Shown piece after piece: positions 28,637 to 36,490 of a stretch of DNA of 64,000 bases. The stretch's first letter is position 1. Each line of letters begins with the position of its first letter. Location: assembly GCA_016839765.1 (NCBI GenBank), contig JAEOTP010000043.1:96001-160000 (forward strand), given 5' to 3'. This stretch comes from Promethearchaeota archaeon. Lineage in GTDB: Archaea > Asgardarchaeota > Lokiarchaeia > Sigyniarchaeales > SOKP01. The position numbers were made by a program, and so were the translations under genes. A model generated the notes under the pieces. It saw only the letters and a program-made list of their open reading frames with translations, was not told where the DNA came from and did no database searches.

Positions 28637-29740
28637 TTAATATTTTGAAGGAGTTTTAGATTTGATTTTATATTTTGGTATCTCTTGAACTTTTTTCAAT
28701 TCTTTCTCAAAATCTCTTTTTTCTCTAAGGAACCTCTCTTTATCTCTTTCTAATTTTTCTCTTTCTCTTCTAATAGCATTTTTTTCAGTGTCTATCATCG
28801 ACTTTTCTTTTACTAAATGCTTATAATCATTATTTAATCTTTTTTGTTTATCTTCCAAATCACGAATCTTGCGTTCTAATGAATAATAAGTATCTTCCGC
28901 TTTAGGAACTTTCCTATTTAGCTCTTTTAATCTTGTTTCTTGTTGTTGTTTCTTTTTTTCCAAATTTCTTACATCATTTTCAATTTTATCTCTAAAGTTT
29001 TCCAAATCTTCTTTTTTTTTATCAATTTCACGAGCTTTAAGATTTAGATCTTTTTTTTTAATACGATTTTTTTCTTTTTCATCTTTTAATTTTCTTTTTT
29101 CATCATCAATCCGGTTTTTTTCATCAAAAATGTTTTTTCTTAGATCATTGATTTCTTTATTTAAATTATCCCTTTCTTTTGAAAGATGTTTGATTTCATT
29201 TCTCAACTCCATTAATTCATTTTCTAATTTTTCAATTGTTCTCTCTAATGCATTTTCTCTTCTTTCCATTCCAGGTATTTTGGTTTTAATCTCTTTAACA
29301 CGAACTTCTGCTCTTGCTTTTTCTCTTTCTAAATATTTTTTCTCACTTTCTAAAGCGTCTTTTAGTCTATCTAACTTTTCTTGATATTTATCTAGGTCGG
29401 CATTTTTTTGATCTAACTCTCTTTCTTTTAAACTTAGATTATTTCTATGTTGCTTTATTCCATTTTTCATTCTTTCTAATTCACTTTTTAACTTTTCACG
29501 TTGGTTTAGAAGATTTTTGACTTCAAGTTCTTTCTCTTTTCTCTTTTTTTCAAGTTCTTTTATATTATCTTGATACCCTTCAAGTTTTTTAATAACCTTT
29601 TCCCAATCGCTTTTTTCTCTGTTTAACTTTATCCTTTCTTCCTTTATCTTTTTAAGTAGTCTTGTATCTTGAATAATTTCGATTTCTTCTTCTGGCGTTT
29701 TCTCTCGAATTTGATACTTAGGAATTGGTTTATCATTCAT
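28637..29740 (-). CDS. Long coiled-coil protein with an internal duplication and matching terminal motifs
   Basis: K/E/R-rich heptads; IPKYQIREKTP at the N-terminus and IPKYKIKSKTP at the C-terminus. Confidence 0.8.
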   Translation of the reverse strand: MNDKPIPKYQIREKTPEEEIEIIQDTRLLKKIKEERIKLNREKSDWEKVIKKLEGYQDNIKELEKKRKEKELEVKNLLNQREKLKSELERMKNGIKQHRNNLSLKERELDQKNADLDKYQEKLDRLKDALESEKKYLEREKARAEVRVKEIKTKIPGMERRENALERTIEKLENELMELRNEIKHLSKERDNLNKEINDLRKNIFDEKNRIDDEKRKLKDEKEKNRIKKKDLNLKAREIDKKKEDLENFRDKIENDVRNLEKKKQQQETRLKELNRKVPKAEDTYYSLERKIRDLEDKQKRLNNDYKHLVKEKSMIDTEKNAIRREREKLERDKERFLREKRDFEKELKKVQEIPKYKIKSKTPSKY

Positions 29741-29944: not shown

Positions 29945-30373
29945 ATGGAGTTTGATGAAGAATTTGATGAAGAGTTTGATGATGAATTTGATGAAGAACT
30001 TGATGAAGAACTTGATGAAGAATTAGAAGAACCTTCTGCAAAAACTCCAGCGGAAGAGGTTAAAGCTAAAACTCCAGCGGAAGAGGTTAAAGCTAAAACT
30101 CCAGCAGTTAAAGCTTTTTCGGCAGGAAAAAAGATTTCAGTTTATTTTATGTCGACAATAGGTCCTGGTGAAAAAAAGCAAAAATTACTCATAAACACAG
30201 GAAACAGCGTTGGGGATATAAAAGAGACTGTTGCGAATTTATTTGGTTTAGATCCTGCTGATTTTCATTTATCTTCAGGTGGAATTACCATGGATGAGAG
30301 TTCAAATGTAAGTGAATATAACGTGAATGATGGAGAAGATATACTATTAATTCCAGCAAGTACTGCTGGTTAA
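29945..30373 (+). CDS. Ubiquitin-like modifier 1 with an acidic, repetitive N-terminal tail; ends -STAG
   Basis: Beta-grasp pattern SVGDIKETVANLFGLDPADFHLSSGG..VSEYNVNDGEDILLI; terminal Gly; E1/E2/JAMM/RING genes nearby. Confidence 0.88.
   Translation: MEFDEEFDEEFDDEFDEELDEELDEELEEPSAKTPAEEVKAKTPAEEVKAKTPAVKAFSAGKKISVYFMSTIGPGEKKQKLLINTGNSVGDIKETVANLFGLDPADFHLSSGGITMDESSNVSEYNVNDGEDILLIPASTAG
29948..30028 (+). repeat. Degenerate 12-bp coding tandem repeat encoding (F/L)DEE
   Basis: TTTGATGAAGAA / CTTGATGAAGAA units, about six copies. Confidence 0.85.
30041..30105 (+). repeat. 27-bp coding tandem repeat encoding KTPAEEVKA (two exact copies plus a partial one)
   Basis: AAAACTCCAGCGGAAGAGGTTAAAGCT at 30041 and 30068; partial copy at 30095. 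Confidence 0.92.
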
Positions 30374-30390
30374 AAAAAATCATTATCCTA

Positions 30391-31200
30391 TTAGTTTTTC
30401 TTTTTTAAATTTTTTTCTTTTCTTGATGGAATCAGAGCAATTTCGTCATCATCATCAATAGCATAATCTTTTATTTGTGAGTTTTCATGCAATAATATTC
30501 CTCCAGAGGATAAAAGAAAATCTTCTAAATTATAGTCAAATAATGTTCCAATTCTTTCTTTAACACTAAATATTAATTCTGTTGTATCAATTATAATGAT
30601 TTTTGTTTTTTCACCTGGCTCAACTAATGATCTTATATAAACTCGTATCTGGTCTTCCTTTTCAATAAAATTTGTAGGAGGTGTATAAATTATCCCCTCG
30701 TCAGTCTTATCCCTGTTTTTCAACATATTTTCGATTAATATTTTTCTCTCGTGTTTATCAAAATACAACATTTCTCTGATAAACATTATTTTATCCATTT
30801 TTGATAATTCTAAAAGATTTATTTTTTCTAATTCTTCCCCACTAAACACAGAAAAAATATATTTATTAATTATTTCCATATTATCATATGATTCATTTGA
30901 TTCAACATAATCTTCTATTGAAGGCATGACATCAATATAATCCTCAATAAGATCAATAGGTTTTTTTTTAATCGATTTTTGTTTTTTGACATATTTTTTC
31001 TCGCTTTTCCTCTCATCCTCACTACTCGCAGATTGAATAATTGTATAGATAGTACTGGTGGATAGTACTGAGACACTACCGATAACTAGAAAGAGAAATA
31101 AAGGAATACTTTCTATATGGAATAAGAAAAAAGCCATATAGATAATTACAAAAATAATATAAAGGGTTATAATACTTAAAACTCTATTTTTTTTCTTCAT
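30391..31200 (-). CDS. Membrane-anchored protein (2 TM) with a C-terminal UBL domain lacking the terminal Gly
   Basis: VYIRSLVEPGEK..VKERIGTLF..DFLLSSGG..IKDYAIDDDDEIALIP aligns to both modifiers; ends SRKEKNLKKKN. Confidence 0.82.
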   Translation of the reverse strand: MKKKNRVLSIITLYIIFVIIYMAFFLFHIESIPLFLFLVIGSVSVLSTSTIYTIIQSASSEDERKSEKKYVKKQKSIKKKPIDLIEDYIDVMPSIEDYVESNESYDNMEIINKYIFSVFSGEELEKINLLELSKMDKIMFIREMLYFDKHERKILIENMLKNRDKTDEGIIYTPPTNFIEKEDQIRVYIRSLVEPGEKTKIIIIDTTELIFSVKERIGTLFDYNLEDFLLSSGGILLHENSQIKDYAIDDDDEIALIPSRKEKNLKKKN

Positions 31201-31255
31201 GATTTTTTATTAAATTATTATCTAAATTTCTAATATATAATTTAAAATTTAAATT

Positions 31256-31280
31256 CCATTGGAATGAATTTGAAGTTTTT
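31256..31280 (-). promoter_or_regulatory. 25-bp motif, copy A, upstream of the membrane-UBL gene
   Basis: Minus strand reads AAAAACTTCAAATTCATTCCAATGG, identical to plus strand 32121-32145. Confidence 0.7.
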
Positions 31281-31284
31281 ATTT

Positions 31285-31956
31285 TCATACACCTTGCATT
31301 TTTTTTCTAACTTTAGAATATTTATCTGTATCTAATTGGAATGTAATTCTTTTTTTTTCTTTTTCAATTTTTATTAATTTCAGTTTTTTTAAAACATATA
31401 AATATTTTTTAATTATATTATGATTCTTTTTTAAGTTAGTTGCTATTTCTGTAATTTTTAATGCTTTATCTTCCTTTTTCATAAAATTAATTATTTCTTG
31501 AACAATAGCCAAATTTAAATAATAATAGAGCTCGTCAAGTTCTGGATTTGAATCGTATTTATAAATAATTCTTCGATTGTTAATTTTTTTTGATCTAACA
31601 AATCGAAATTTTTCCAAACAAGATAGATGCCATAAAGCTTGATTACTTCCGATATTTAGAGCATTCATTATTTCATTAATATTTGACGGATTTTTCTTTA
31701 TGTAATTAAAGATTTCATTCCTTACTGGATGTTCAATAATATTATTTTTCATCAATTTTGTTCCAGGAATGATCATTCTCTTTTTAATAAGATTTTTAAT
31801 GGTAATTTCAATCCTAGCTTTATTGATAAAGGGATTTGATTTTACCCTATTACTAATAAATACAACAATGTTTTGTATTGAAAAGAATGGTTTTTTTTCT
31901 AAATATTCTTTTACTAATTCAAGAATAATAGATTCGACATTATTCATAGAGTTCAT
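31285..31956 (-). CDS. Tandem winged-helix (ArsR-like) transcriptional regulator
   Basis: HPVRNEIFNYIKKNP..EIMNALNIG..WHLSCLE and a second HTH, ITEIATNLKKNHNIIKKYL. Confidence 0.85.
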   Translation of the reverse strand: MNSMNNVESIILELVKEYLEKKPFFSIQNIVVFISNRVKSNPFINKARIEITIKNLIKKRMIIPGTKLMKNNIIEHPVRNEIFNYIKKNPSNINEIMNALNIGSNQALWHLSCLEKFRFVRSKKINNRRIIYKYDSNPELDELYYYLNLAIVQEIINFMKKEDKALKITEIATNLKKNHNIIKKYLYVLKKLKLIKIEKEKKRITFQLDTDKYSKVRKKMQGV

Positions 31957-32120: not shown

Positions 32121-32145
32121 AAAAACTTCAAATTCATTCCAATGG
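32121..32145 (+). promoter_or_regulatory. 25-bp motif, copy B, upstream of the Ubl2-E1-E2-JAMM-E3 genes
   Basis: AAAAACTTCAAATTCATTCCAATGG, followed almost immediately by TATA-like TTTTATAA. Confidence 0.7.
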
Positions 32146-32225
32146 GTTTTATAATATCGTTTTAATGCGATTTTATTAAACTTAAAAAATAAAAAATTAC
32201 AAAATAAAAAAAAGTCGTGAAATAA

Positions 32226-32552
32226 ATGAGTTTTGAAGAAGATTTTGATGAGGAATTAGAACCTGTTAAATCTAAAACACCATCTACCAAAATTCCTTCA
32301 GCAGGAAAGAAATTGACTTTATACTTTACGTCAACCATTGGACCTGGTGAAAAGAAGGAAAAATTAACGGTAAATGATGCTAATCATGTAAGTGATATTA
32401 AGGAAACATTAGGAAATTTATATGGCCTTGATCCTAATGATTTTCACTTATCATCTGGTGGAGTTACTATGGATGAAAATAGTCAATTAAAAGATTATAA
32501 TTTAAATGATGGCGACGATATTCTTTTGATTCCTGCGAGTACTGCTGGGTAA
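32226..32552 (+). CDS. Ubiquitin-like modifier 2 with a short acidic tail; ends -STAG
   Basis: Close paralogue of 29945-30373: VSDIKETLGNLYGLDPNDFHLSSGG..LKDYNLNDGDDILLIPASTAG. Confidence 0.9.
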   Translation: MSFEEDFDEELEPVKSKTPSTKIPSAGKKLTLYFTSTIGPGEKKEKLTVNDANHVSDIKETLGNLYGLDPNDFHLSSGGVTMDENSQLKDYNLNDGDDILLIPASTAG

Positions 32553-32631: not shown

Positions 32632-33867
32632 ATGGTGATAATATTGGATAAAGATTCAGATTTTTTTGCAAAAGCATTGTCAGTAAAAGAGAGAGATTTG
32701 TATGATCGCCAGTTTCGTCTCGAGGGCTGGTCCCAAAAATTAGTAAAAAACTCGAGAGTGTTAATTGTTGGTGTAGGAGGTTTAGGATGTGAAATTGCTA
32801 AAAATTTAGCCATGTTAGGGTTAGGCCAATTAGATCTTGTTGATTTAGATATCATTGAACATTCTAATTTGAATCGTCAAATTCTTTTCACAGATGCGAA
32901 GATAGGAGAACCTAAGGCAGTTGTTGCTGCTCGAAAACTAAAGGAAATTAACCCTAATATTATTGTTAAGGGATATCATACATCTCTAGAAAGATTAAAT
33001 CCTGCATTATATCAAGCTGCTGAAGTTGTAATTGGGGGCCTTGATTCAATGAATGCGCGCTTGAACTTAAATGCTCAATGCATAAGATTTAGAAAACCAC
33101 TCGTAGATGCAGGAGTATCAGGTTATCATGGTCATATTTACACTATCTTTCCGTATCAAAATGCTTGTTATGAGTGCAATCCATTACCAGTAAGTGAAAG
33201 TGATGAAATGGCAGCTTGTACAGTTGTTGGAGTCCCCAGAAAAAGGATTCATTGTGTTTTTAAAGGAGATATGGCATTTAAAGAAAAGTTTGATAGAGAT
33301 CCAAATCCAAAAGATATAAATGATATTAAATTTATTCAAAAAGTTGCAAATGAATTGGTCAATAAACATAATTTCTTACCTGAATACACTAAAGATGATA
33401 TCATAAAAATCATTGATAGGCATGATCCTGGAATAATTACCATAAATGCAGTTATTTCTGCTTTACAATCACATGAGGTAGTAAAAATTCTTCATTGGAA
33501 AAAAGGTCATAAAGGATTAGGAGAACCTATTAAAAATTATGTGATTTTTAATGCCATGACGATGAAATTATACCATATTGAAAAAACGAGAAATCCAGAA
33601 TGTTCTCAATGTGGTAAATCTGTTAGAAGAGTAGCTATAAAAATGAGGTCTCAATCGCCATGTATAAATATAATTAAGATATTAAAGAAAAACGGATTTG
33701 AATTGGAGCCTGATTTTGAACCTGTGCTAACCTTATTGGATTTCAATGATATTAAAGTAATTGATTTAGAACAGAATACTATTGAAAACGGTTTAAGAAA
33801 TTACGAATTTATTACAGTTGCAGGGTTTAAGGGTGGAGAAATTTATGTAACCTTAAAATTAAAATGA
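32632..33867 (+). CDS. Ubiquitin-like activating enzyme E1 (Uba2/Uba3-like)
   Basis: LYDRQ, GVGGLGCE, DLDIIEHSNLNRQ, CYEC...CSQC Zn site, catalytic ACTVVGVPRKRIHC, C-terminal extension. Confidence 0.93.
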   Translation: MVIILDKDSDFFAKALSVKERDLYDRQFRLEGWSQKLVKNSRVLIVGVGGLGCEIAKNLAMLGLGQLDLVDLDIIEHSNLNRQILFTDAKIGEPKAVVAARKLKEINPNIIVKGYHTSLERLNPALYQAAEVVIGGLDSMNARLNLNAQCIRFRKPLVDAGVSGYHGHIYTIFPYQNACYECNPLPVSESDEMAACTVVGVPRKRIHCVFKGDMAFKEKFDRDPNPKDINDIKFIQKVANELVNKHNFLPEYTKDDIIKIIDRHDPGIITINAVISALQSHEVVKILHWKKGHKGLGEPIKNYVIFNAMTMKLYHIEKTRNPECSQCGKSVRRVAIKMRSQSPCINIIKILKKNGFELEPDFEPVLTLLDFNDIKVIDLEQNTIENGLRNYEFITVAGFKGGEIYVTLKLK

Positions 33868-33973: not shown

Positions 33974-34501
33974 ATGAGTATAAGAAGTAGTCGCGTTTCC
34001 CGCGATTTTGCTGGATTAAAAAAAATGCTTAAAGTTGGTACTATAGTTCAACTAAAACCATTTAATTCTAAAAAAAAGAGCATTGATCATTTAGCTATCA
34101 CAATTAAAGGCCCTAAAGGTACTGTCTTTGCTGGGGGACTTTTTAAACTAGAAATGAGATTCCCTGCTCAGTATCCTAAGCAGCCTCCTTTTGTAAGAAT
34201 GCATACTCCAATTTGGCATCCAAATTTTTGGCCAAAACCAAGTGAATACAAAGGAAAGAGAAATATTTGTCTAGCATTAATAGACCCTTCCTTAATTGGG
34301 AAAAAGGGTGGATGGAGTCCTTCAAAAACCGCTGTTACAGTAGTTCAAGCAATAATTGCTATGTTAAATACCCGGGGTAAATATGTAAACCCAACAGATG
34401 TTTTTAATAAAAAAGCAGCAATAGAAATGATGAAAAATCCTAAATTTTTCGAGAAAAAAGTTAAAAATTTAGTGAAGAAGTACGCTAAGAACAAGTGGTG
34501 A
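33974..34501 (+). CDS. Ubiquitin-conjugating enzyme E2 (UBC fold)
   Basis: GPKGTVFAGGLF..FPAQYPKQPP..IWHPN..ICL..WSPS. Confidence 0.95.
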   Translation: MSIRSSRVSRDFAGLKKMLKVGTIVQLKPFNSKKKSIDHLAITIKGPKGTVFAGGLFKLEMRFPAQYPKQPPFVRMHTPIWHPNFWPKPSEYKGKRNICLALIDPSLIGKKGGWSPSKTAVTVVQAIIAMLNTRGKYVNPTDVFNKKAAIEMMKNPKFFEKKVKNLVKKYAKNKW

Positions 34502-34508
34502 AATCATA

Positions 34509-35315
34509 ATGAATATTGATGAGAAGAAAAACAATTTAATCAAAGAAGCAATAAAGCAAAAAATTAAAGAGAAAATTAAAAAAGAATTACTTGAAGAGAT
34601 ATATACCGAATTACAATTAGAAGAAGAATTAAGGGAAGAAATAACTTCTGAACTTATTGAAACCCAGCCATTAGAGCATTCAGAAACAGTTAAAGCCAAA
34701 CTTGAACCCATACCAATGGAACCGGTAAAAACATATGCTAAGAATGATAAAGCTGAAGCAAAAGTAGCTCTAACAGTAAAAGCTGTCCTTAAGATCGCTA
34801 GTCATTCATTAAAATATGCTCATTCTAAAATTCGAAGAGAGGAATGGGTTGAAGTGATAGGATTACTCGCTGGAAAATTTGACAATACTAAAGGAGTCCT
34901 TCATGTGGAAGATGCCTATCCAATGGGACATGGTACAGCAGTTTATGCTGAAATTAAAGATTATAAAAATTATGTTAGAGCTTTTAAAGACATAAAAAAG
35001 AACAGCCTTTTTATTTGTGGATGGTATCATTCCCATCCTTCTTATGGATGTTTTATGTCTAAAGAAGATTTAGGAACTCAAGCAAGATACCAAAAATTAT
35101 GGGATAAAGCAATTGCGCTAGTTATAGATCCATACCAAATTGATGGCACTTCATTGGGTTTTGAAATCTATCGTGCGAATTTTAAAACAAATAAGTGGTT
35201 TTCAGTACCATTTGATATTAAAGGATATTTAGATGTGAGAATGTTGCCGGAAATTTTGGAATTTATGAATCCAATCATTGAAGGTAAACCTGTTTATTTA
35301 GAATATGATGAATGA
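34509..35315 (+). CDS. JAMM/MPN+ isopeptidase (Rpn11/CSN5-like) with an N-terminal coiled region
   Basis: EVIGLLAG...GWYHSHPSYGCFMSKED..TQ..ALVIDP. Confidence 0.93.
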   Translation: MNIDEKKNNLIKEAIKQKIKEKIKKELLEEIYTELQLEEELREEITSELIETQPLEHSETVKAKLEPIPMEPVKTYAKNDKAEAKVALTVKAVLKIASHSLKYAHSKIRREEWVEVIGLLAGKFDNTKGVLHVEDAYPMGHGTAVYAEIKDYKNYVRAFKDIKKNSLFICGWYHSHPSYGCFMSKEDLGTQARYQKLWDKAIALVIDPYQIDGTSLGFEIYRANFKTNKWFSVPFDIKGYLDVRMLPEILEFMNPIIEGKPVYLEYDE

Positions 35316-35338: not shown

Positions 35339-36490
35339 ATGGTTAAAAAGAAGGGTTTAGCAATAATATTTATTGTTTTTCTAATAATTGGTATAATACA
35401 TAGTTCTATCTCAATTTCCTTAAATATTTTTTTAACTTGGATATTTATTGGTTTATGGATAATTTTTACGATTAAGATTTTTGAAAATATAAAGCAGCAT
35501 CGCGAATTCAATTCACCACATAATACTGCTTTTTTTGTAATCATCCCTTTATTCATCGGAATTTTTTACTCCATTTGGGGGTATTTTACAGGTATATTGG
35601 GTGAAAACCTTCTTGAAGGCTCAAATATATATTTTAGTTGGTGGAGTCTCATTTTTGGATTTCCATTTATAATATATGGTTCTTATTCTTTATATCGTTG
35701 TTTTAAGAAATATAATGTAATCTATTTTGGAACCAAGTCAGTAAAAGCTAGGACATTAGGATATATTTTAACTTCCACAGTTATTCTTTTTATAATAATT
35801 TATTGGGTAATGTTTTATAGTGTTATAGAATTTTATGATTCTCTATTAACCCCTCTTCATTTTTCTTTAAATCTAAATCTTCTATTATTATTCATTGCAT
35901 CATTATTGATCTTTATTATTTTTGGATTAGCTAGTTCACATAGAACACTTCCAACATTAACTCGGGATTACATTGCTCAACGTACTAGAAGAATAAATTC
36001 ATTAAGTACTCCTACAATTCAAAGGCAAAGGGTACGTACAACAACTAGAACTACTCCATCACCTTCAAGAAGAACTGTGACTCAAACAACGAGGTCTAGA
36101 TCTCATTCATCGAGAACAACACCTACTTCCCAAAGGCAAAAAACTAGAACAACAAAAACTACTAGAACTAGAGCCGTAAAAACAACTTCAAAAGCTATAA
36201 ATTTAGATAAATATAAACCAAGAGCATCATATCTGTCAGAAGATGATTTTAAATGTATTTTTTGTTTTAAGCTGCCAAAACTACCCGATGATAATGGCAG
36301 AGGGATAATTGTATGTCCAAATTGTAGATATCCGGCTCATGCTGATGAATTTAAAGATTGGCTAAGAACCTCAAATCTCTGTTCAAGATGTAGTACTCCC
36401 ATTCCATCCAGATTTAAACATAATCCTAGAATAATTAGTATAAAAAATTATCAAATAGTCTATAGGCATTTTTTAAAGAAGAAAAGATAA
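35339..36490 (+). CDS. Multi-pass membrane protein with a C-terminal RING-variant domain (putative E3 ligase)
   Basis: About 6 TM helices, an R/T/S-rich linker, then C-x2-C-x16-C-x2-C-x4-H-x2-E-x10-C-x2-C with the RING Trp (KDWL). Confidence 0.85.
   Translation: MVKKKGLAIIFIVFLIIGIIHSSISISLNIFLTWIFIGLWIIFTIKIFENIKQHREFNSPHNTAFFVIIPLFIGIFYSIWGYFTGILGENLLEGSNIYFSWWSLIFGFPFIIYGSYSLYRCFKKYNVIYFGTKSVKARTLGYILTSTVILFIIIYWVMFYSVIEFYDSLLTPLHFSLNLNLLLLFIASLLIFIIFGLASSHRTLPTLTRDYIAQRTRRINSLSTPTIQRQRVRTTTRTTPSPSRRTVTQTTRSRSHSSRTTPTSQRQKTRTTKTTRTRAVKTTSKAINLDKYKPRASYLSEDDFKCIFCFKLPKLPDDNGRGIIVCPNCRYPAHADEFKDWLRTSNLCSRCSTPIPSRFKHNPRIISIKNYQIVYRHFLKKKR

Follow-up and report, generated by a model that had tools for sequence, protein, structure and literature searches.

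The window, i.e. the whole stretch of 64,000 nucleotides of archaeal DNA analysed here (G+C content about 29%; assigned to Promethearchaeota, class Lokiarchaeia, by the labels of its closest homologues), carries a cluster of ubiquitin-related genes and raises the question of what purpose is served by a copy of the modifier that is anchored in the membrane, lacks a conjugatable end, and is nevertheless kept next to the genes of the conjugation enzymes. The first-pass annotation of this gene had proposed a decoy or adaptor, which would recruit or inhibit the E1, E2, or JAMM enzyme at the membrane. As an account of the main function, that proposal was not borne out, since the strongest evidence for a partner concerns a winged-helix transcription regulator and since the interaction face of the ubiquitin-like (UBL) domain has diverged from that of the modifiers. 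The membrane UBL protein is instead probably a membrane-tethered anti-activator of the operon's own regulator, with the UBL domain serving as the input.

Two genes on the minus strand, those of the membrane UBL protein and of the regulator, are flanked by a convergent gene of Ubl1 on one side and by a divergent operon on the other side, with the latter comprising Ubl2, E1, E2, JAMM, and a membrane RING-like protein (Table 1). The genome, which is 96% complete, has no ubiquitin-family matches other than Ubl1, Ubl2, and the membrane UBL gene; two more E2-family matches are found elsewhere in it (G000:C23:10059-10484 and G000:C33:162272-162520).

Table 1. Features of the ubiquitin-like cluster, with positions counted from the first nucleotide of the window.
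Feature	Positions	Strand	Basis
Ubl1, AG-ended modifier paralogue, convergent with the membrane UBL gene; without upstream element	29945..30373	+	
Membrane UBL gene, TM-TM-middle module-UBL, 269 aa	30391..31200	-	ORF list, homologues, AlphaFold2
Basic tail in place of the conjugatable ASTAG end	30394..30426	-	Tail alignment
Ubiquitin-fold domain, residues 183-258, Ubl1/Ubl2 paralogue, dN/dS 0.16	30427..30654	-	Pfam, Foldseek, alignment
Middle module with a terminal three-helix bundle, residues 84-165; predicted partner, the winged-helix regulator	30706..30951	-	
TM hairpin, residues about 7-25 and 33-55	31036..31182	-	Hydrophobicity, AlphaFold2, topology
31-bp element with TATA-like tract at its end, about 80 nt before the start of the membrane UBL gene	31250..31280	-	
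Regulator with three winged helices, 223 aa; predicted to pair with the module	31285..31956	-	Pfam, synteny, complex model
Second element copy, at the head of the conjugation operon, about 105 nt ahead of Ubl2	32121..32151	+	
Ubl2, AG-ended modifier	32226..32552	+	
E1-like enzyme, ThiF family	32632..33867	+	Pfam
E2 (UQ_con)	33974..34501	+	Pfam
JAMM protease	34509..35315	+	Pfam
Polytopic membrane protein, C-terminal RING-like zinc finger, candidate E3	35339..36490	+	Weak zf-RING match only, E 0.12

Both modifiers have acidic N-terminal tails, an Ala-Gly (AG) end, and an alanine where ubiquitin has Arg72, a feature shared with NEDD8. Their terminal ASTAG corresponds to ubiquitin positions 72–76 in an alignment extended by hand, and the AG end is kept in 72 of 72 and 64 of 64 sequences, respectively. 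The third residue of this tail is Thr, Ile, or Val in Ubl1 and is invariant in Ubl2, and 16 of the 64 Ubl2 homologues carry an extension after the Gly that resembles a pro-form. Three and two tandem AG-family Ubl domains are present in P0133 and P0146, respectively, which are poly-Ubl precursors. An AG-ended Ubl is also found C-terminal to other domains (L084:6619-7401, L085:5602-6444, L086:5770-6660, L083:5583-6506, L087:2264-3718, and L094:10072-11583), namely a Cys-containing finger with a coiled coil, a Roadblock-like domain, and an ATPase-like domain. With the conjugatable end kept, such fusions could lead to the attachment of whole domains to targets. A long coiled-coil gene (28637-29740 of the window) is oriented divergently to Ubl1 in almost every locus, and it also adjoins the operon in genomes without the membrane UBL protein (L087, L092).

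The two N-terminal transmembrane helices assigned by the first-pass annotation are confirmed by Kyte–Doolittle hydrophobicity (19-residue windows, 2.7 at residue 7 and 1.8–1.9 at residues 29–37) and by an AlphaFold2 model with helices spanning residues 3–26 and 32–64. The N terminus is basic, with a mean of 3.5 Lys/Arg and no Asp/Glu, the eight-residue loop between the helices is neutral, and the segment that follows them is basic again, a pattern that implies a hairpin with both ends in the cytoplasm. TM2 is similar to the anchor helix of the related surface proteins described below. The protein has 410 homologues of near-constant length, and its full-length form is present in 45 of the 68 genomes of its own Lokiarchaeia family and in none of the 232 other Asgard genomes searched. 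Related genomes carry the same operon without the membrane UBL gene (L084, L087, L092, L093, and L095), which makes the gene a later addition; being limited to one family, it is a lineage-specific invention rather than an ancestor of MUB, HERP, or TMUB1, and an example of membrane-anchored, non-conjugated ubiquitin folds that originated independently in archaea. Every domain of the protein is under purifying selection (dN/dS 0.16–0.40), with the lowest values, 0.16 each, found for the middle module and for the UBL. No HTH was detected in the 269 residues by a Pfam search.

The C-terminal domain folds as ubiquitin (Foldseek E about 1e-5, rmsd 1.2–2.4 Å), matches PF00240 with E 3e-4, and shares 38% identity with Ubl2 (E 2e-15) and 34% with Ubl1 (E 5e-14). 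Its assignment as a paralogue of the two modifiers, together with the PGEK, DFxLSSGG, and LIP motifs, thus stands, and it is the best conserved part of the protein, with a mean column identity of 0.81. In a tree that rests on few columns and has weak deep forks, this UBL groups as a single clade (98/98) that sits with the Asgard AG-ended domains and is separated from eukaryote-type rows (99/95). All 29 UBL domains match PF00240, none of them has a UBX match in Pfam, and the loop that would carry an FPR motif reads SSGG. Homologues of Ufm1 have been described in Asgard archaea (PMC12962969); the genome analysed here yields no match to PF03671 at E 10, and the identification of the modifiers as Ufm1 is rejected at the sequence level.

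The tails of 123 homologues of the membrane UBL protein agree with its description as non-conjugatable. In none of them is AG found at the position that it occupies in the modifiers, three have a Gly at the position of the terminal Gly, one ends in Gly, and none contains a Cys. By the known mechanism of E1, a protein in which AG never occupies the modifier's position cannot be activated. A cryptic Gly processing site within the tail is ruled out by the same set of sequences. The annotated tail, SRKEKNLKKKN, is indeed a basic replacement of ASTAG, but it is not conserved as a whole, with only S-R-K and the 0–4 residues that follow being kept and with the last five residues being species-specific. 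Residues 262–269 are modelled as short and unstructured, with pLDDT under 50. Six invariant residues are peculiar to this UBL (R186, R190, L192, T199, Y223, and A255). On the face equivalent to the Ile44 patch of ubiquitin and its rim, five of the seven positions (190, 192, 229, 236, and 255) differ from the modifier and each of these differences is fixed, which suggests a specialised domain and not a faithful mimic.

The region between the anchor and the UBL had been annotated as a helical middle region. Helical it is, but it proves to be a mobile domain in its own right and not a spacer. This module, often accompanied by TM2, is found as the C-terminal cytoplasmic tail in many surface proteins, which reach 2500 residues and have ectodomains that are β-propeller-like or β-helix-like; it also occurs in tandem copies, behind a RING-like zinc finger, or as stand-alone proteins of 80–100 residues, and it is almost confined to the same Lokiarchaeia family. 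A genome may encode as many as 20 single-pass surface proteins that end in the module, and a triple winged-helix gene lies next to every one of them (L130-L169 and L088-L091; for example P0153, P0165, P0169, P0188, P0195, and P0230). Many of these proteins have a RING-like zinc finger inserted between the transmembrane helix and the module. Stand-alone modules of 82–95 residues without a transmembrane segment (L151:2650-2937, L155:8739-9002, and L169:2633-2881) are possibly soluble anti-regulators. No clear match to the module was obtained in Pfam, in a PDB sequence profile search (best E 0.15), in Foldseek (best E 2.8), or in the ESM Atlas. For the three-helix bundle, the best VIA-align score (Z 5.7, rmsd 2.6, 52 aligned) was to designed proteins, and UBA and CUE domains are not among the structural matches listed, though kinship with them may still exist; blank searches of this kind prove neither a new fold nor an absence of kinship.

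The expected co-occurrence of the membrane UBL gene with the operon is seen in the adjacency of Ubl2 in 68 of 70 assessable loci and in a shared promoter element that is unique in the genome. Position in the cluster by itself is weak evidence, because the whole region is syntenic and the housekeeping flanks (FtsZ, CofG/H) are equally conserved. In each of the 75 loci for which upstream sequence is available, the regulator gene lies directly upstream of the membrane UBL gene, and it stays there where the enzyme operon lies elsewhere (L043, L060, L080, and L081). One of these loci, L043 (CP070805.1), keeps the membrane gene, a shortened regulator, and the element without adjacent Ubl genes, and a 517-residue ORF with a Ubl-like N terminus is located nearby. 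The pairing extends beyond the operon. Among 44 loci chosen for the module only, related ones of which are not independent samples, a regulator of the same family is found on the same strand in 37 (25 downstream, 11 upstream, and 1 fused). Conversely, 39 of the 43 strong regulator copies in five genomes have a module within 6 kb, against 2–9% expected by chance. Four ORFs of a single genome (G270) fuse the transmembrane segment, module, and regulator, with L154 read directly and the other three identified by coordinates. Short regulators of 110–190 residues without the third winged helix are found beside module genes, often just behind the element (L090, L132, L136, L140, L142, L144, L157, and L159), and are possibly dominant-negative or adaptor forms.

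A complex of the module with the regulator was modelled with ESMFold2 from paired 53-row alignments, giving ipSAE values of 0.80, 0.80, and 0.78, compared to 0.02 for the best of three controls. At least 83% of the contacts agree between the runs, and the pLDDT of the partner is at least 85. The ipSAE mark is reached by 58 of 80 solved and by 2 of 110 mismatched pairs, a calibration that is only rough for self-made alignments. The module has no solved homologue from which the prediction could have drawn. Among solved structures, the regulator has a single sequence relative, the lone domain 5duk. In the model, strand 114–117 of the module pairs with the first winged helix of the regulator, and the second recognition helix, of which the invariant W109 is part, lies under the bundle (F140). 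The third winged helix is free of the interface and has a more basic recognition helix (3.25 vs 1.09 Lys/Arg). In the pairs found outside the operon, interface columns are more conserved than the rest (p 0.025 and 0.036); the correlation of module and regulator identities (Mantel r 0.8) is confounded by shared ancestry and carries no evidential weight. On the strength of the genomic association and of the model, binding of the module to the first and second winged helices of the regulator is very likely. Tethering would account for the arrangement no less well than sequestration, given the free third winged helix and the existence of fusions that would need proteolysis for release.

The two copies of the 31-bp element are 94% complementary. 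A conserved part of about 21 bases contains two TxC(C)A-like half sites spaced by one turn of the helix, and five variable bases separate it from a TATA-like tract. Of 76 loci, 67 have kept the element ahead of the membrane UBL gene, and 67 of 68 have kept it ahead of Ubl2; Ubl1, the regulator, and E1 are not preceded by it. A profile search of the genome returned only two strong sites, both of them in this cluster (46.7 and 43.6 bits), followed by a site of 18.9 bits; a general heat-shock or proteostasis regulon is rejected, since there is no strong copy elsewhere in the genome. A scan for sigma-70-type promoters is uninformative for an archaeon. The element moves with Ubl2 when the operon is relocated or Ubl2 is duplicated (L096, L097, and L099), and none was seen in the loci without the regulator pair (L084-L087 and L092-L095); in the divergent loci L080 and L081 its score is below or at the threshold. 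Related sites occur near module–regulator pairs outside the operon (16, as compared to 0 in five shuffles). These associations make it likely that the regulator is the protein that reads the element, which could also be read by a different factor. The layout resembles that of the sites of TFB-RF1, a TFB-recruiting activator, which lie upstream of a weak BRE (PMC5937170), and by analogy suggests activation.

The preferred mechanism, membrane-tethered anti-activation, can be outlined as follows. The hairpin, a well-supported assignment from the sequence, would hold the module and the UBL at the cytoplasmic face, where the module would engage the regulator. There is about an even chance that the latter is an activator restrained in this manner. 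Its release would switch on both the conjugation operon and the gene of the tether, and such co-induction of the membrane UBL protein would make the loop one of negative feedback. In the related proteins the input is presumably received by the large extracellular domain; here its place is taken by a cytoplasmic, non-conjugatable copy of the modifier, a replacement that points to an internal signal, namely the state of the ubiquitin-like or proteolytic machinery. The tether may be removed or remodelled, and the regulator thereby freed, when the conjugation or degradation machinery recognises the UBL or when free Ubl competes with it. Contact between the UBL and a pathway enzyme is possibly the input step of the regulator and not the main function. 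We can speculate, quite tentatively, that it is turnover or occupancy of this membrane-bound copy by the co-encoded E1, E2, or membrane RING protein that releases the activator of the pathway. If so, the locus would be the archaeal counterpart of systems in which transcription factors are kept at membranes and released in a ubiquitin-dependent manner, and it would rest on an undescribed receptor–regulator signalling family, present in as many as 20 copies in a Lokiarchaeia genome. For the control of Asgard ubiquitin systems, the locus provides a named candidate regulator, operator, and membrane partner, all of them small, and the wider pairs of surface receptors and winged-helix proteins, some with a RING-like finger next to the module, are a candidate transmembrane signalling system in Lokiarchaeia.

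A membrane co-activator or scaffold resembling a split ToxR, in which the module keeps the regulator permanently at the membrane with its third winged helix on DNA and the UBL acts as a switch of the complex through conformation or dimerisation, would make good use of the exposed, more basic third recognition helix, and it has precedents in the four fusions and in the membrane-bound transcription regulators that are common in archaea (PMC10269533). However, most pairs are separate genes, the second recognition helix is covered in the model, and the TM-less modules and the short regulators lacking the third winged helix in the same loci are better suited to titration; we regard this arrangement as unlikely. 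About as unlikely, or marginally more so, is the decoy or adaptor as the main job. The strong conservation of the UBL with its motifs, the promoter element common to the operon and the membrane UBL gene, the co-encoded membrane RING protein, and the precedent of MUBs, which inhibit the charging of E2 at the membrane (PMC4996978), all speak for it. It leaves unexplained the middle domain, which is not a spacer, as well as the invariant pairing with the regulator and the complex model; fixed differences at most positions of the Ile44-equivalent face are unexpected in a faithful decoy, and the operon occurs in related genomes without this gene.

The UBL might alternatively be a handle for extraction, docking an AAA+ ATPase or the proteasome in a UBX- or degron-like manner that is unrelated to transcription of the operon. 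In eukaryotes, Cdc48 is recruited by non-conjugatable ubiquitin folds that sit at the C terminus of membrane hairpins (Ubx2/FAF2), and the short unstructured tail and the Lys-rich linker (residues 62–83) would suit such a role, but neither a UBX match nor an FPR loop is present and the link to the regulator would have no explanation; as a function on its own this is improbable, and as a mechanism of input it is already contained in the anti-activator reading. The chance joining of a membrane protein to a modifier copy that is neutral or in decay would fit the narrow distribution and the fact that the core operon can dispense with the gene, yet 410 homologues of near-constant length, purifying selection, invariant residues of its own, and a conserved element of its own contradict this explanation, which is hardly credible.

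The searched literature, which covered few subscription papers, contains no description of the membrane UBL protein or of the middle module, and the closest systems differ in several respects. Proteins such as HERP/Usa1, TMUB1, and Ubx2/FAF2 also combine transmembrane segments with a cytoplasmic, non-conjugated ubiquitin fold, and are found beside a polytopic RING protein. The likeness to the protein described here includes the polytopic RING neighbour, but only the generic fold is held in common, whereas the archaeal UBL groups with the Asgard AG-ended modifiers and its protein has a transcription factor as its predicted partner. Sequestration of transcription factors at the membrane is known from anti-sigma factors such as RseA and from the Mlc-PtsG and MtlR-EIIMtl pairs, the last of these being discussed in PMC13421365. 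There, too, a small cytoplasmic domain binds a soluble regulator (as predicted here), regulator and tether are neighbours, and the tether is co-induced with the targets (as would be the case here); what differs is the archaeal setting, the triple winged-helix regulator, the undescribed binding module, and an input domain that is a paralogue of the operon's own modifier. The architecture of transmembrane transcription regulators (ToxR, CadC, and ArnR; PMC10269533) is matched by the fused relatives in G270, whereas the membrane UBL protein itself has no DNA-binding domain and the system is split over two genes.

The ubiquitin operons of Caldiarchaeum subterraneum and of Asgard archaea, as far as they are presented in the available parts of the sources (PMC5654768, PMC6043591, PMC9192718, and 10.1101/2023.07.25.550441), likewise combine a modifier, E1, E2, JAMM, and RING in one cluster and have C-terminally extended pro-forms. 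Compared with these, the modifiers of the present cluster end in Ala-Gly instead of Gly-Gly and the RING protein is polytopic; those parts make no mention of a membrane UBL paralogue or of a regulator of the operon. MUB/UBL3 proteins provide a membrane-bound ubiquitin fold without a di-Gly end that is tied to the conjugation pathway; MUBs are small, are prenylated at a CAAX box, and bind the backside of E2 with a lap-bar loop (PMC4996978). The membrane UBL protein, in turn, is held by an N-terminal hairpin, has no Cys in its tail and hence no CAAX box, and includes an additional module predicted to bind the regulator, so that its classification as a MUB-type protein fails on the anchor. Most likely, it works like a membrane anti-regulator, and its likeness to MUB, HERP, and TMUB1 is limited to a membrane-bound, non-conjugated ubiquitin fold.
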